Below, in pieces: positions 1,459-10,427 of a stretch of 41,011 bases of DNA; positions within the stretch are counted from its first letter, which is position 1; every line of letters starts with the position of its first letter. Origin of the DNA: a virus (Duplodnaviria > Heunggongvirae > Uroviricota > Caudoviricetes); the IMG/VR virus record IMGVR_UViG_2563366930_000002, positions 1-41,011 of that record, one strand, 5' to 3'. The position numbers were made by a program, and so were the translations under genes. The notes beneath the pieces were generated by a model, which saw nothing but the letters and a program-made list of their open reading frames with translations, was not told where the DNA came from and made no database searches.

Positions 1459-2622
1459 TTACACATCATTAGTACCTTCCTTATTTTTTGACTGGGACAA
1501 ATTTGGGACCGATGGGTTCAGGATCGAGTCTATTTGCCGTGCGTGTTCGGTAAGGTGATTAGGTGCAAGGTGAGCATATCGACGAACCATTTCGATAGAC
1601 TCCCAGCCTCCCATTTCCTGTAACACTGACAACGGGACTCCGGCTTGAACCAGCCAACTTGCCCAGGTGTGTCTCAAGTCGTGAAATCTGAAATCATCAA
1701 TACCAGCCCGTCTCAGCGCCGCTTTCCAGGCTGTGTTTGCGTCATACCGCATCTTCCTTACTGTTGGCGCTTTCGTTCCGTCTGGTTTGGTACAGCTTTC
1801 CTTGTACACAAATACCCAACGGTGATGATTCCCGATTTGTTTTTTCAAAACGCGACATGCAGTATCATTCAGCGCAACGCCGATTGCGCGGTTTGATTTA
1901 CTCTCTTCCGGGTTTATCCATGCCACCCGGCGCTGCATATCTATTTGTTGCCATTCAAGGTTGATGATGTTCGAGCGTCTTAAGCCTGTTGCCAGTGCAA
2001 ATTCAACAACAGACTTTAATGGCTCCGGACATTCATCAATCAGCCTTTGTGCTTCATGGGGCTCCAGCCAGCGGATCCGTTTATTCTTTGGTTGAGGCAC
2101 TTTAATAATTGGTGCCTTATCCAGCATTTTCCATTCACGCTCTGCGGCTCTTAGTAGGGCCTTTATAAATGAAAGATGCGTAGCCTTCGTTGCAACGGAC
2201 GCTGGTTTTGGCGTGTATTCTGGAACAGGTTTCCCTTTTTTTCTGCATGCTTCTGCCCTGAGTTTCCAGTTTTCCTCATGACGCCGGTTCGTCATTTTCT
2301 GCATTGCTGAATAAATTTTTGATTCAGTAATGTCTCTTAGTTGCATTCCTGCGAAATGTTGAAGCCAGAATCCGATCCGGCTTTTGTCATCGTCCAGTGA
2401 TTTTTTATGTGCTTTCTCTTCAAGCCACCTGACACACGCTTCCTCGAACGTTATATCAGGTATTTCACCAAGTTTGCTGACCCGCCATGCTTCAGCCTTT
2501 AGCTTGTCATGGAGTTCTGTCGCCTGCCTTTTGTCCTTTGTTCCAAGAGACTGTTTAAATCTTTTACCGTTCGGCAATGTGAAACTGGCGTACCATATTT
2601 CACCTCTGCGGAAGAGTGACAT
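1459..2622 (-). CDS. int: Tyrosine site-specific integrase, 387 aa
   Basis: N-terminus [14 protein letters not shown] and C-terminal [10 protein letters not shown]...VLQEMGGW...RYAHL are typical of lambda-family integrases; sits 15 nt from the tRNA 3' end. Confidence 0.95.
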
Positions 2623-2849
2623 TTTCTTTCCTCTGTTATGCCATCACCCGCGCTCACCTGGACAGTATGCAGCGGAGACTGAAGAGCCGCAATGCAGGCT
2701 TGTCGTGTTGTGAGGTAAGGAGATTTATTCTTAGTGGGATCTTTGCGTGTTGCCTGAAGACGCCCTGTGCGTATCCAGTTAATGGCAGTCGGTCTGGATA
2801 TCTTGAGAAAATGACAGGCCTCATCGAGTGTGAGGCTGTATGGCTCCAT
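2499..2849 (-). CDS. xis: Excisionase-like (Xis/AlpA-type) DNA-binding protein; start at the internal Met MEPYSL
   Basis: [29 protein letters not shown] resembles an excisionase helix-turn-helix; start overlaps the upstream stop (TAATG); 3' end overlaps int by about 124 nt so the true C-terminus is uncertain. Confidence 0.6.
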
Positions 2850-3154
2850 TATTTCACCTCTTGCTGTGACATTGTTGAAAAATGGATACCAGCTCGTTGC
2901 TGCCAGACGATCCAACCGAGAGTCATATCCCATTCCATGTATTCGTTATCGCCGTTTTTTGCTCTCCGACGATCTACTAAGTCACCGAAACGCTTTTCCA
3001 TGAATAATTCATAAGCTTCGCGTTCATCTGGTTCTACTTCCAGAGATAGGAGTGCGATTTCATAAGCACGGCGCTCAATATCGTCTCGCACGTCAAGGCT
3101 GCTGATACGCTCTTTAATTTCTTTAATCAGTTCTTTGTCGGTAAAAGTGGTCAT
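2849..3154 (-). CDS. Hypothetical early protein, 101 aa (YfdT-like position)
   Basis: Acidic ORF translationally coupled to its neighbours; position matches the CPS-53 yfdT slot. Confidence 0.55.
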   Translation of the reverse strand: MTTFTDKELIKEIKERISSLDVRDDIERRAYEIALLSLEVEPDEREAYELFMEKRFGDLVDRRRAKNGDNEYMEWDMTLGWIVWQQRAGIHFSTMSQQEVK

Positions 3155-3516
3155 TATGCTCCAGCCTCCGGTGCTTTTGGCATTACTGCCCAGTGAGTGA
3201 TATTGACGTTTTCAAGGTCCCCGACCTGAAATGTCCACTGCCATTCTCCGGTTTCTTTTTGTCCCCAGGTGTACCAGAGAGAACGCCAGCCAATTAGCCA
3301 GCCTTCTCCGTTAGTATCGAATAACAAAACACTTTCATTTGCTGGTGGCAGTTCAGTTGACACTGGTATTACTTTGTTTTCCTGTGCTGCACATTTAGCT
3401 TCAAGCGCATCGAATTTACGCACCAGGTATTCAGCATCTGTTTCATTTACTTTCAGATCTCGCGGTACACATCTCCCACGAAGAAACCCTTCCATTTCGA
3501 AAACATTCATGCGCAT
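3154..3516 (-). CDS. Hypothetical early protein, 120 aa (YfdS-like position)
   Basis: ORF with start/stop overlap to both neighbours; same operon. Confidence 0.55.
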   Translation of the reverse strand: MRMNVFEMEGFLRGRCVPRDLKVNETDAEYLVRKFDALEAKCAAQENKVIPVSTELPPANESVLLFDTNGEGWLIGWRSLWYTWGQKETGEWQWTFQVGDLENVNITHWAVMPKAPEAGA

Positions 3517-5423: not shown

Positions 5424-5860
5424 TTTGCTGCTCCTCATCATATCGACCCTGCAAGGCCGATTAGTTTCTCCACAAAACAGAGAAGAACACCTGCGGTGGC
5501 AGCCGCCCGGATGGATTGGGTTATGAGCCCGTCGTCCGGTGATGCTCTTCTCTGTTTTGTAAAAAGGACGGTACCAGCCGGAAGCAAGGGTACAAACTGG
5601 TACCGCCAGGACTACACACAGCATAAAGTTGTGGTGCCGGGTGCCTCCCGGTGCCTGGCGAAGGTTGCACACCAGACGGGTGGGTATCCACAGAAGGTCG
5701 ACTGTCAGCCTCAACCTTAACCCGCGTGCGCTGAGCCGCATTCACCACAACGCTAAGGATTCTCTTTGGTTGAAAATACTTAGCTGTTATGTGCCTGTCT
5801 TTTCACCACTTCAGGCTCGGTGGTATCCTTTTAAGCCCGTATACATAAAAGGAAAATCAA
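5424..5860. other. GC-rich, ORF-poor, hairpin-dense region; candidate structured RNA or cis-acting DNA site
   Basis: 15 bp perfect inverted repeat ACAAAACAGAGAAGA (5473-5487 / 5546-5560); GGTACCAG/CTGGTACC stem (5570-5604); CCGGG/CCCGG hairpin (about 5636-5652); no ORF with credible composition or signals. Confidence 0.4.
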
Positions 5861-6106
5861 ATGACTTTTGATGAAAAAGAACTTGATAATGCAATTAATA
5901 AAATCATCGTAACGTCGCTCTTTTCCTGTCTCAGCGACACTCAGCAGAAACAGTTCTACGAATCGGCTTTCAACATGATCGAGCGTTGTTGTTTCTGCGA
6001 TGCCGACGAGTTACCTGAAAAAATCAGGAAACAGTTGGCTGATGCTCTTCGAGTGCGACTTTCTGACCAATTTTCTGAAATGTGCTCTCCGAATTTGGAC
6101 AAATAG
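5861..6106 (+). CDS. Hypothetical small protein, 81 aa, opposite in orientation to the surrounding early operon
   Basis: AAGGAAA Shine-Dalgarno 7 nt before ATG; protein-like composition. Confidence 0.45.
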   Translation: MTFDEKELDNAINKIIVTSLFSCLSDTQQKQFYESAFNMIERCCFCDADELPEKIRKQLADALRVRLSDQFSEMCSPNLDK

Positions 6107-6299
6107 AAAAAGGCCATTTCCATTCAGGGGCTGATGGAAATACTTCAGCCTGTTCCAAAGCACGGCGTAAAGAGAACACAACTCCAGCCATAATCTGATG
6201 TTTCCCATTGGTCCAGCTATCGCCGCTCTGATCTACAGGGGCGGCTATGTCGTATGACCAAACGACTTCACAGTTATTGTTTAAAATCTGGACTTTCAT
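6024..6299 (-). CDS. Hypothetical small protein, about 91 aa from internal Met MKVQIL; 3' end overlaps the convergent ORF
   Basis: AGGTG Shine-Dalgarno 7 nt upstream of ATG at 6299; C-terminal 80 nt overlaps 5861-6106, so one of the two ends is probably wrong. Confidence 0.35.
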   Translation of the reverse strand: MKVQILNNNCEVVWSYDIAAPVDQSGDSWTNGKHQIMAGVVFSLRRALEQAEVFPSAPEWKWPFSICPNSESTFQKIGQKVALEEHQPTVS

Positions 6300-6427
6300 T
6301 TCATACACCTGCTTTAACATGAGTGCCTAGTGGCACAACATGACTCAACGAATCATCCTGGACTTCATATGCCCCAGGCGGCTACTTCGTGGGCGTCCTG
6401 CCTGTTCGTTGTCGGTAAAATGATATT

Positions 6428-6467
6428 GCTACTTAAAGTTGCAAAAATCAACTACAAAAAGTAGAAG
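6428..6467. promoter_or_regulatory. Putative OL operator cluster
   Basis: CTACTTAAAGT and ACTAC-n5-GTAG half-sites related to those between repressor and cro; lies in a 450 bp AT-rich gap. Confidence 0.4.
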
Positions 6468-6770
6468 TTAAGGGCATAAAAACGCATTTTGAAATTAATT
6501 CATTGAATTTACAGGTAAAATATTTTGGGGGCTATGATCAAAAAATTATATTGTGAAGTTAGCTGAGTTGTAGAACGTGATGGATTGTTTCATTGTGGCT
6601 GAGATCAGTATGTGATCTAGTTAATCATCAAGTGGGGAGAAGTCAATCATGAGAGTATTGTTGAGTTTTTGGAGGCTAAGTGTAAAACGGTAGGGAATTT
6701 ACTACTCAATGGATTGTGTGATTTAGCCTCGATAGTAAGAAAACTAGGGCAGGTCATAGTCAAAAACTTA

Positions 6771-7178
6771 TCAAAACATAAATTTGGCGAGACCTAAAAT
6801 CGCCAAGCCTGTTGCAACAGTCCATGCGATCTGTTTATTTACGGCTGATGAAATAGCGCTGTTGACTTCACTTAGGCTAGGTTTTTTTGACAACTTTTCA
6901 TCTATATCTATTTGTTTTTGAAGGATAACAGCGACATCGCGTCGGGTGTCGGAGAGAGCGTTTCGCAAATCACGAATGTCAGCTCTCATCTCTGCGAGAT
7001 TTGTTTTTATATCCTCAACATTCGCTTCTAACTTAGCGACTCGGGCTTCAAGCATGTCATCACCTCCGCCATCTCCACCGTGTCTTCTAATTGTGGGAAG
7101 TTCACTATTAAATGGTACTACATTATTTTGCGGCGTCGGCATTTTTTTCATCTTCCGTTTTTGCTGGGAACTTTTCAT
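6771..7178 (-). CDS. Coiled-coil protein with C-terminal transmembrane anchor (tail-anchored), 95-135 aa depending on start
   Basis: Predicted coiled coil (LEARVAKLEANVEDIKTNLAEMRADIRDLRNALS) and hydrophobic C-terminus IAWTVATGLAILGLAKFMF; AT-rich; start ambiguous (7178, 7151, 7142 or 7055). Confidence 0.6.
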   Translation of the reverse strand: MKSSQQKRKMKKMPTPQNNVVPFNSELPTIRRHGGDGGGDDMLEARVAKLEANVEDIKTNLAEMRADIRDLRNALSDTRRDVAVILQKQIDIDEKLSKKPSLSEVNSAISSAVNKQIAWTVATGLAILGLAKFMF

Positions 7179-7470
7179 TTACCCAGTTCAAAACTGAAAA
7201 CGCATTTATATGAATTTCATTTCCACAATTGTTGCATATTAGTGAAAAGTAATACTGGTTAGCAGTATCAGAATAAATGCTTTTTTCAGTAAAAACATTC
7301 ACATAACTACCAAGTTTCATAGTACATGGCATGCCCACATTCGCGCTGACTTGAGGCACAGTCAATCTGTCGTGTCCACATAGTGTACATTTTAGATATA
7401 TATTCTTTTCTGAGAAATAAGAGACCAACATATCCATGTTAATCTTTTCGAATCCCTGCTCACTAGCCAT
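7123..7470 (-). CDS. Zinc-ribbon-like protein, 115 aa, directly downstream of the repressor
   Basis: Two CxxC pairs (CTLCGH, CNNCGNEIH); 16 nt downstream of the repressor stop on the same strand; AT-rich. Confidence 0.6.
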   Translation of the reverse strand: MASEQGFEKINMDMLVSYFSEKNIYLKCTLCGHDRLTVPQVSANVGMPCTMKLGSYVNVFTEKSIYSDTANQYYFSLICNNCGNEIHINAFSVLNWVNEKFPAKTEDEKNADAAK

Positions 7471-9496: not shown

Positions 9497-10427
9497 ATTA
9501 ACCGGCTATGTATGGGATGGTTGCGCAGCGTCAGGCATGAAATTATCCAGCGTGGCAATTATGGCCCGCCTGGCTGATTTCAGTAATGACGAAGGTGTGT
9601 GCTGGCCATCAATTGAAACCATTGCCCGCCAGATTGGCGCGGGGATGAGTACCGTCAGAACGGCTATCGCACGGCTGGAAGCAGAAGGCTGGTTAACGCG
9701 TAAGGCGCGTCGCCAGGGTAACCGCAATGCGTCGAATGTTTATCAGCTTAACGTTGCGAAGCTTCAGGCAGCGGCATTTTCTCAACTGTCAGATTCTGAC
9801 CCGTCAAAATCTGACGCATCAAAATCTGACCCGTCAAAATTTGATGCGTCGAAATCTGGCAAAAAAGCGGGTTTTCACCCGTCAGAATCTGGCGGGGATC
9901 CGTCAGTAAAATCAAAACATGATCCGTCAGATAAAAAACCTTCTCGTCCGGACGCTTCGCAACCGGACACGCAGACGGCTGAACAGGATTTTTTAACTCG
10001 CCATCCTGATGCGGTTGTATTCAGCCCTAAAAAGCGCCAGTGGGGAACGCAGGATGATTTGACCTGCGCACAGTGGCTCTGGAAAAAAATCATCGCCCTG
10101 TACGAGCAGGCCGCCGAATGTGACGGCGAGGTGGTTCGTCCCAAAGAACCGAACTGGACAGCCTGGGCAAACGAAATTCGCCTGATGTGTGTGCAGGATG
10201 GTCGTACTCACAAACAAATCTGCGAGATGTACAGCCGCGTCAGCCGCGATCCGTTCTGGTGCCGTAACGTGCTCAGCCCGTCGAAGCTGCGGGAAAAATG
10301 GGATGAGCTTTCCCTGCGCTTATCGCCGTCCGTCAGCACGTACACCGAAAAACGCGAAGACCCGTACTTCAAAGCCAGTTACGACAATGTGGACTACAGC
10401 CAGATCCCGGCAGGATTCAGGGGGTGA
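9486..10427 (+). CDS. Replication initiator (lambda O-like replisome organiser) with N-terminal winged helix-turn-helix
   Basis: N-terminal helix-turn-helix (MSTVRTAIARLEAEGWL); internal low-complexity SKSD repeat encoded by iterons; position after cro/cII. Confidence 0.8.
   Translation: MSTKLTGYVWDGCAASGMKLSSVAIMARLADFSNDEGVCWPSIETIARQIGAGMSTVRTAIARLEAEGWLTRKARRQGNRNASNVYQLNVAKLQAAAFSQLSDSDPSKSDASKSDPSKFDASKSGKKAGFHPSESGGDPSVKSKHDPSDKKPSRPDASQPDTQTAEQDFLTRHPDAVVFSPKKRQWGTQDDLTCAQWLWKKIIALYEQAAECDGEVVRPKEPNWTAWANEIRLMCVQDGRTHKQICEMYSRVSRDPFWCRNVLSPSKLREKWDELSLRLSPSVSTYTEKREDPYFKASYDNVDYSQIPAGFRG
9788..9936. repeat. Iteron array inside the replication gene; candidate phage origin
   Basis: At least five copies of CCGTCA(A/G)AATCTGAC-like units followed by an A-rich tract (ATAAAAAACC). 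Confidence 0.6.

Follow-up and report, generated by a model that had tools for sequence, protein, structure and literature searches.

We identify two small convergent genes, here termed A and B, in a 41,011-nt stretch of viral DNA (the window, meaning the whole stretch that was analysed). They probably form one conserved module, in which B is the first gene behind the early-left promoter PL, A occupies the counter-oriented sieB slot together with a sas-type antisense element, and the two genes would be expressed in opposite phases; we put the probability of this reading at about 0.6. The window is an SfV-like, lambdoid-regulated E. coli prophage, whose region 5700–6412 matches phage SfV at 99.4% identity and occurs in approximately 380 complete E. 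coli genomes. The two genes are strictly co-inherited and represent new cargo within a known architecture. No regulatory neighbourhood of temperate phages is better known than the N/sieB position in which they lie, and genes there tend to govern exclusion, self-immunity and the lysis–lysogeny transition. The pair and its translation signals are located as follows:

5861..6106, plus strand: gene A, 81 aa, matching phrog_3311
6024..6299, minus strand: gene B, 91 aa, corresponding to SfV orf33 and phrog_3195
5849..5853, plus strand: Shine–Dalgarno sequence of A (AAGGA)
6306..6310, minus strand: Shine–Dalgarno sequence of B (AGGTG), 6 nt 5′ of the ATG at 6299
6024..6106, no strand: coding overlap of the 3′ ends, 83 nt, A codons 55–81 against B codons 65–91

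A preliminary description of this DNA had noticed an 81-aa plus-strand ORF with a good ribosome-binding site running against the early-left operon, and an overlap of about 80 nt between its 3′ end and that of a 91–98-aa minus-strand ORF with a ribosome-binding site of its own. The plus-strand ORF is gene A, with AAGGA spaced 7 nt from its ATG, and its orientation was correctly read: it is the key feature of the locus, with A in a sieB-type counter-oriented slot. The overlap was confirmed and measures 83 nt. The minus-strand ORF and its ribosome-binding site (AGGTG) also held, in the shorter of the two forms. The longest minus-strand ORF spans 6024–6320 (98 aa) and contains an internal ATG at 6299 that yields 91 aa; because MKVQ is the N terminus of every B homolog and homology with many loci stops at 6301, the start of B, as judged from these comparisons, is the ATG at 6299 and not that of the 98-aa form.

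The preliminary description had also allowed that one of the two ORFs might be spurious, and had proposed a conservation and substitution analysis of each frame across related prophages. Existing annotation is consistent with a shadow ORF, since each pipeline calls just one of the two: the SfV record (orf33) and PGAP annotate B only, and A is the only one annotated in phage vB_EcoM-720R4 and in Klebsiella, Salmonella and Yersinia records. In addition, B occurs in 122–162-aa forms that are true shadow read-through over A. Most database relatives were uninformative because they are at least 90% identical, and two apparent divergent homologs of B (P0050, P0043) were rejected as frameshifted copies of near-identical DNA. 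The informative comparison set consisted of loci L004–L007, which are colinear with window positions 5792–6301 at approximately 70% nucleotide identity. Against L004, differences by codon position were 14/4/30 in the A-only part (pN 0.18, pS 0.83, zero stops) and 17/8/37 in the B-only part (pN 0.19, pS 0.86), whereas the remaining five frames carried stops and had pN equal to or above pS. Averaged over six lineages, pN/pS in the unique parts was 0.22–0.30 for A and 0.30 for B, the non-overlapping parts of both frames were free of stops in 6–8 lineages, and every divergent locus contained intact A-like and B-like ORFs, even where gene callers had missed one. Because third-position-biased change and pN far below pS were confined to the A and B frames, A and B are, by their substitution pattern, both genuine protein genes. 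Conservation of both frames at the protein level, rather than of only one, refutes the reading of either as a spurious shadow of the other. This settles the annotation conflict: public records list one gene where both are real, so that a gene is missing from the annotation of hundreds of prophages in E. coli, Klebsiella, Salmonella and Yersinia.

Both proteins belong to families of unknown function. A and B were each matched end to end by a PHROG of this kind, the only matches in searches of Pfam, PHROGs, NCBIfam and PADLOC, and homology to proteins of known function or to defence, anti-defence or toxin–antitoxin (TA) families was looked for and not found. A is acidic (net charge approximately −5) with a conserved CC(F/Y)C motif, and AlphaFold predicted a three-helix bundle (pLDDT 82) for which fold comparison returned generic helical-bundle matches only. 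B is acidic and Trp-rich; its core (residues 1 to approximately 65) was modelled by AlphaFold as a β-hairpin followed by a long helix, and its C-terminal third, which coincides with the overlapping part, was of low confidence. The B family comprises only 20 clusters among 1.84 billion representatives. Two scans of species-representative genomes gave zero matches. Matches of the B N terminus to β-propellers (P0066–68) were rejected as repeat noise. Some B homologs (L100 3001–3579; P0059, P0061, P0063) carry an extra N-terminal domain of approximately 85 aa (MEFKDLP...), which also stands alone in other viral contigs (L097–L099).

A profile search detected A homologs of 58–64% identity in Klebsiella, Salmonella and Yersinia, and tblastn revealed an uncalled convergent, overlapping B homolog in each of these loci. 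Distant B homologs (L100 and L101/L102; 35–47% identity) were accompanied by an uncalled convergent A-like ORF, of 44–50% identity in L100 and approximately 30–37% in L101/L102, with an A/B overlap of 137–140 nt. Prophages of E. coli, Klebsiella, Salmonella and Yersinia thus carry the two genes together in this convergent, overlapping form, with protein identity falling as low as approximately 30–35%; all loci retrieved via B (L004–L007, L100–L102) contain A, and all loci retrieved via A (L090–L096) contain B. The starts of A and B lie 439 nt apart in six lineages and 436 nt apart in L101, a spacing maintained over protein divergence of up to approximately 50%. Intact 81/91-aa pairs were present in 108 of 123 module instances. 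Over these instances we tested for a TA-style asymmetry of gene decay and found none, the defects hitting either gene: B is frameshifted in L003 and L008 and interrupted by a nonsense codon in L095, and A has lost its start (ATG to ATA) in L225 and has a mutated Shine–Dalgarno sequence in L044. Because A and B are always found together, while sieB pairs with different and unrelated first genes (N, gene 24 or ydaF), the linkage suggests functional coupling of the two products; it could partly stem from the physical overlap and from the conserved, recombination-prone flanks of the slot.

Upstream of B, the window contains the following regulatory signals:

6423..6451, minus strand: candidate PL promoter (TTGATT-17-CAATAT), predicted start approximately 6416, embedded in OL
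approximately 6429–6441 and 6452–6464: OL operators, CTAC-N5-GTAG
6343..6412, minus strand: conserved leader of the PL transcript, approximately 70 nt, between PL and B

An inverted repeat (6422–6478/8215–8271) pairs OL with OR, and PL was assigned as TTGATT-17-CAATAT by analogy with PR in OR (TTGCAA-17-CATTAT). With OL and PL mapped by this inverted homology, B is the predicted first gene of the early-left operon, after PL/OL. The immunity boundary is at 6412, where homology to SfV stops. In Yersinia L090, TTGACA-17-TACATT flanked by repeated operators lies directly 5′ of B, and in all loci B is located directly downstream of a CI-type repressor. The leader (6343–6412) starts at the predicted PL transcript start and is kept in many lambdoid phages, from E. 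coli, Klebsiella, Yersinia, Citrobacter and Salmonella; it lies 5′ of B in L093 and L094 and beyond A in Yersinia L090. By size and position it resembles HK022 putL, a two-stem RNA of approximately 70 nt that begins at the PL transcript start (PMC9378689). Comparison with the HK022 PL region detected no sequence similarity, the fold was not significant and Rfam gave zero matches, so that a put-like identity was not supported by sequence. The leader may correspond to the induced non-coding RNA STnc1310 reported beside the ST64B CI gene (PMC7067206). Between the leader and the element at approximately 5790–5830 that precedes A, the slot is mosaic, with whole cassettes swapped: mEp460 has one gene here, and in SfII (L103 1663–2022) SfII_36 (plus strand, 63 aa) converges, with a 39-nt overlap, on an unannotated 68-aa minus-strand ORF, the SfII junction keeping a 15-codon remnant of B (MKVQILNNNCEVVWA*).

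Directly before A, and over its translation start, lies an element homologous to the sas antisense RNA of phage P22, the homology covering the 75 nt that precede A, with the following parts:

5775..5865, minus strand: sas-like antisense RNA element on the PL strand, RNA ends inferred from P22 sas
5826–5833/5846–5853: hairpin S3 of the element, its 3′ arm being the Shine–Dalgarno sequence of A
5805–5809/5820–5824 and 5793–5797/5812–5816: helices S2 and S1 of the element, interleaved

The element has the motif GCCTG..ACCAC..CAGGC..GTGGTATC and, after it, a hairpin that ends in the Shine–Dalgarno sequence. The window and L004 share it at 100% conservation and it occurs also in the distant L100, and the same element is found upstream of sieB in P22 (L233 2637–2763), lambda (L234 approximately 445–582) and Rac (L231 approximately 9540–9671). 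P22 sas (PMC13397905) is the exact reverse complement of the P22 element region (L233 2637–2763); its 5′ end is antisense to the sieB AUG and Shine–Dalgarno sequence, while the conserved element makes up its 3′ body. The core of the window element is identical to P22 sas at 33 of 39 positions (sequence from PMC13397905 Table 2), its helices are conserved, and its 5′ part is complementary to the AUG and Shine–Dalgarno sequence of A. Because the P22 sas sequence matches the reverse complement, we read the element as an antisense RNA on the PL strand. The same sequence led us to reject the element as a promoter or 5′ untranslated region of A (a pseudoknot or riboswitch-like leader, or a boxA-like or ops-like motif). 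Fold energies gave no strand assignment, the minus strand being slightly more stable, and the fold energy of the single window element was not significantly below that of shuffles. For A, a simple sigma-70 scan yielded no convincing promoter; an extended −10-like motif, TGgTATCCT (5821–5829), is a candidate and would leave the anti-Shine–Dalgarno arm untranscribed.

The sas RNA is reported to switch translation of sieB mRNA during P22 lytic growth (Ranade & Poteete 1993, summarised in PMC12197685 and PMC7067206), and in the searchable literature sas is discussed for P22 sieB only. A pattern scan of viral contigs (L109–L228) located the element 31–36 nt 5′ of the ATG in more than 25 unrelated small ORF families of lambdoid prophages, encoding products of 58–156 aa that include zinc-ribbon proteins and a membrane protein. 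Of 22 element-bearing ORF families, 18 had a convergent partner ORF abutting or overlapping the 3′ end, by a mechanical count of unvalidated ORFs. The hairpin arms vary between cassettes yet remain complementary, and S1 exists in three compensated variants (GCCUG/CAGGC, GCCGG/CCGGC and GCCCG/CGGGC). Pair counts showed 84% of cells paired, and the covariation of S1 and S3 exceeded that of all 500 shuffles and all slid controls, with S2 and most of one S1 arm being fixed by the search pattern. Given this spread over more than 25 unrelated ORF families, control by sas-like antisense RNA does not seem specific to sieB: it looks like a module in general use for counter-oriented accessory genes, and would offer a general mechanism by which such genes are switched off as the lytic programme starts. 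The early-left region of Yersinia L090 contains a second convergent pair (2534–3326), made up of a plus-strand ORF of 78 aa, likewise preceded by a copy of the sas-like element, and a minus-strand gene of 193 aa; the two overlap by 26 nt.

The arrangement found here, PL/OL at 6423–6478, B as first gene and a counter-oriented A converging on it, is that of P22, where the layout c2 ← PL ← 24 → ← sieB also has a repressor, PL, a first early gene converging on a counter-oriented gene, and the element. In lambda, N and sieB converge with a 0-nt gap (N → ← sieB), and in the Rac prophage of K-12 sieB is counter-oriented in the leftward operon and overlaps ydaF by 4 nt (ydaF → ← sieB). By position, B holds the place of lambda N and P22 gene 24, and A that of sieB. 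The cargo is different. P22 SieB has approximately 190 aa, whereas A is an 81-aa soluble, acidic, helical protein and not a SieB homolog; SieB family members are membrane proteins of approximately 160–190 aa, whereas A had no Pfam, NCBIfam or PADLOC match and by inspection is unrelated to Rac SieB. The P22 gene is sieB-esc, and an Esc-like internal start is not evident in A. P22 further has a second hairpin and approximately 60 extra nt with the mapped sieB promoter, both of which are lacking before A; the annotated promoter of P22 sieB, like its RNA start, is downstream of the element. Gene 24 is unrelated to B and is separated from sieB by a 20-nt gap, in contrast to the 83-nt A/B overlap. 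Likewise, the proteins of lambda N/sieB and Rac ydaG–ydaF/sieB differ from A and B, and the 0-nt gap and 4-nt overlap of these pairs contrast with a real dual-coding overlap of 83 nt. Unlike in lambda, there is no nutL/boxA–boxB before B: we looked for the features of an N- or gene 24-type antiterminator and found for B no Arg-rich RNA-binding motif, no nut site and no family match, and no boxA-like sequence or Rfam match was seen in the leader at 6300–6416.

Two further systems bear partial likeness to the pair. The lambda oop RNA is a 77-nt non-coding RNA that is convergent with cII and overlaps its 3′ end; the A/B pair shares with it convergent transcription across the 3′ end of an early gene, but the partner is a conserved protein gene rather than a non-coding RNA, and the overlap is weakly constrained. 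BstA/aba of BTP1 is a prophage defence gene with cognate self-immunity next to the repressor. The A/B locus resembles it in its immunity-proximal location and, as predicted, in an accessory function expressed in the lysogen and a built-in way out for the carrier phage; it differs in that there is no homology and any defence role of A would be hypothetical.

Antisense regulation, which the preliminary description had placed at the overlapping 3′ ends and an imperfect hairpin there, is probably right in spirit, although the evidence points to the sas-type element at the 5′ end of A (approximately 5775–5865, minus strand) and not to the 3′ overlap or the hairpin. The hairpin has an 8-bp stem (6116–6123/6134–6141) that lies outside the overlap, to its right, in B-only coding sequence; on the plus strand it was no more stable than shuffles (z = −0.6; −1.9 on the minus strand), and it was not conserved in divergent loci, and on both counts we rejected it. 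Within the core overlap, pN/pS was 0.57 in the A frame and 1.31 in the B frame, with no clear coding signature in the latter. Because synonymous divergence of A falls from 0.63 to 0.39 inside the core overlap, the data hint at a weak second constraint. The position of the B stop is variable (91, 122 or 162 aa), which sets the overlap at 83 to 281 nt; where long B tails run over A the B frame is unselected (pN/pS 1.64), identifying these tails as shadow read-through. The 83-nt overlap is best understood as tight packing taken to an extreme, combined with drift of the B stop codon over the conserved C-terminal helix of A, and not as a regulatory device in its own right.

These features can be combined into a conditional scheme of how the module might work. 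In the lysogen, PL would be repressed and A made, the A transcript running antisense into B. Upon induction or infection, transcription from PL would express B and cross A in antisense; read-through from PL would yield the sas-like RNA, which, by analogy with P22, would block the translation start of A, and convergent transcription may also interfere with transcription of A. The PL switch, the sas-like RNA and convergent interference would together place expression of A and B in opposite phases. Functional coupling of the products could then take the form, for example, of a lysogen-expressed factor and its early-expressed counterpart.

How far the two proteins depend on one another is where explanations diverge. 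Coupling at the protein level would make A an exclusion factor of the lysogen, harmful to infecting phages or to some process, and B its early antidote, which would let the phage evade its own factor, following the logic of SieB and Esc, or else B the harmful product and A the safeguard. This is compatible with the one-module reading favoured above, to which it adds the coupling of the proteins. The strict co-occurrence of A and B in both search directions, down to approximately 30% identity, would fit such a pair, in contrast to sieB with its unrelated partners; both proteins are small and acidic with no enzymatic signature, and the position is that of a known exclusion gene with built-in self-immunity (PMC12197685, PMC7067206). 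Set against this, no homology to defence or anti-defence families was found, the linkage may be structural (overlap and cassette flanks), and the rare variants with a single broken gene go both ways and give no genetic hint of dependence; on balance we regard a cognate pair as rather unlikely. Equally doubtful is the view that A is a counter-oriented moron and B an ordinary early gene, unrelated neighbours that overlap incidentally through tight packing and are kept together by recombination in their flanks. Such neighbours would be expected from a slot that is bounded by two conserved elements and whose cassettes are swapped whole, that harbours another convergent pair in SfII and that resembles the convergent arrangement of 18 of 22 leader-bearing ORF families; the unselected tail of B over A would also fit. 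However, the pair persists where the flanks do not: PL immediately precedes B in Yersinia, a 105-aa gene comes before B in L004, and the L100 form of B has an additional domain fused to its N terminus. The 439-nt geometry, free of indels over approximately 40% protein divergence, is moreover unusually rigid.

The preliminary description had further raised a TA-like pair, which could be a 3′-overlapping type I module acting through the antisense overlap or a convergent type II module. The genes are indeed small, convergent, overlapping and prophage-borne, and B is sometimes inactivated with A intact (L003, L008, L095), yet A-defective variants with intact B exist as well (L225, ATG to ATA; L044, mutated Shine–Dalgarno sequence), so that gene decay shows no asymmetry. 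Purifying selection acts on both partners, which are soluble proteins, unlike in type I systems, and the overlap is the least constrained region and varies from 83 to 281 nt. Unlike in type II systems, the genes are convergent and not co-transcribed, and A is acidic and has neither the fold nor the charge of a DNA-binding antitoxin. With no match to TA or defence families, a TA-like module gained no positive support and is quite unlikely. A bolder version of the one-module reading would make A and B a cognate two-protein system, comprising a lysogen-phase factor and an early-phase antidote or the reverse, whose exclusive expression is secured by convergence together with the sas-type RNA, the element then being a portable 'lysogeny-only' switch; we offer this tentatively, as a possibility whose odds, if slightly better than those of the cognate pair, are still clearly below even.

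Other small features flank the module in the window. Between cI and PL, two small genes (6771–7470, minus strand) occupy the rexA/rexB position. One encodes a 115-aa CxxC protein (phrog_4293) and the other a 135-aa coiled-coil protein with a hydrophobic C terminus (phrog_3556), with weak 'hemolysin'-type PHROG matches; both are likely lysogen-expressed accessory genes co-transcribed with cI. On the other side, the minus strand at 5558–5773, over which PGAP annotates a frameshifted pseudogene, gave a full-length sub-threshold match to the prophage small RNA family STnc100 (39.5 bits against a gathering score of 47, E = 2.6 × 10⁻⁶). The match follows immediately on the predicted 3′ terminus of the sas-like RNA, an arrangement suggesting that several small RNAs are processed from the PL transcript.
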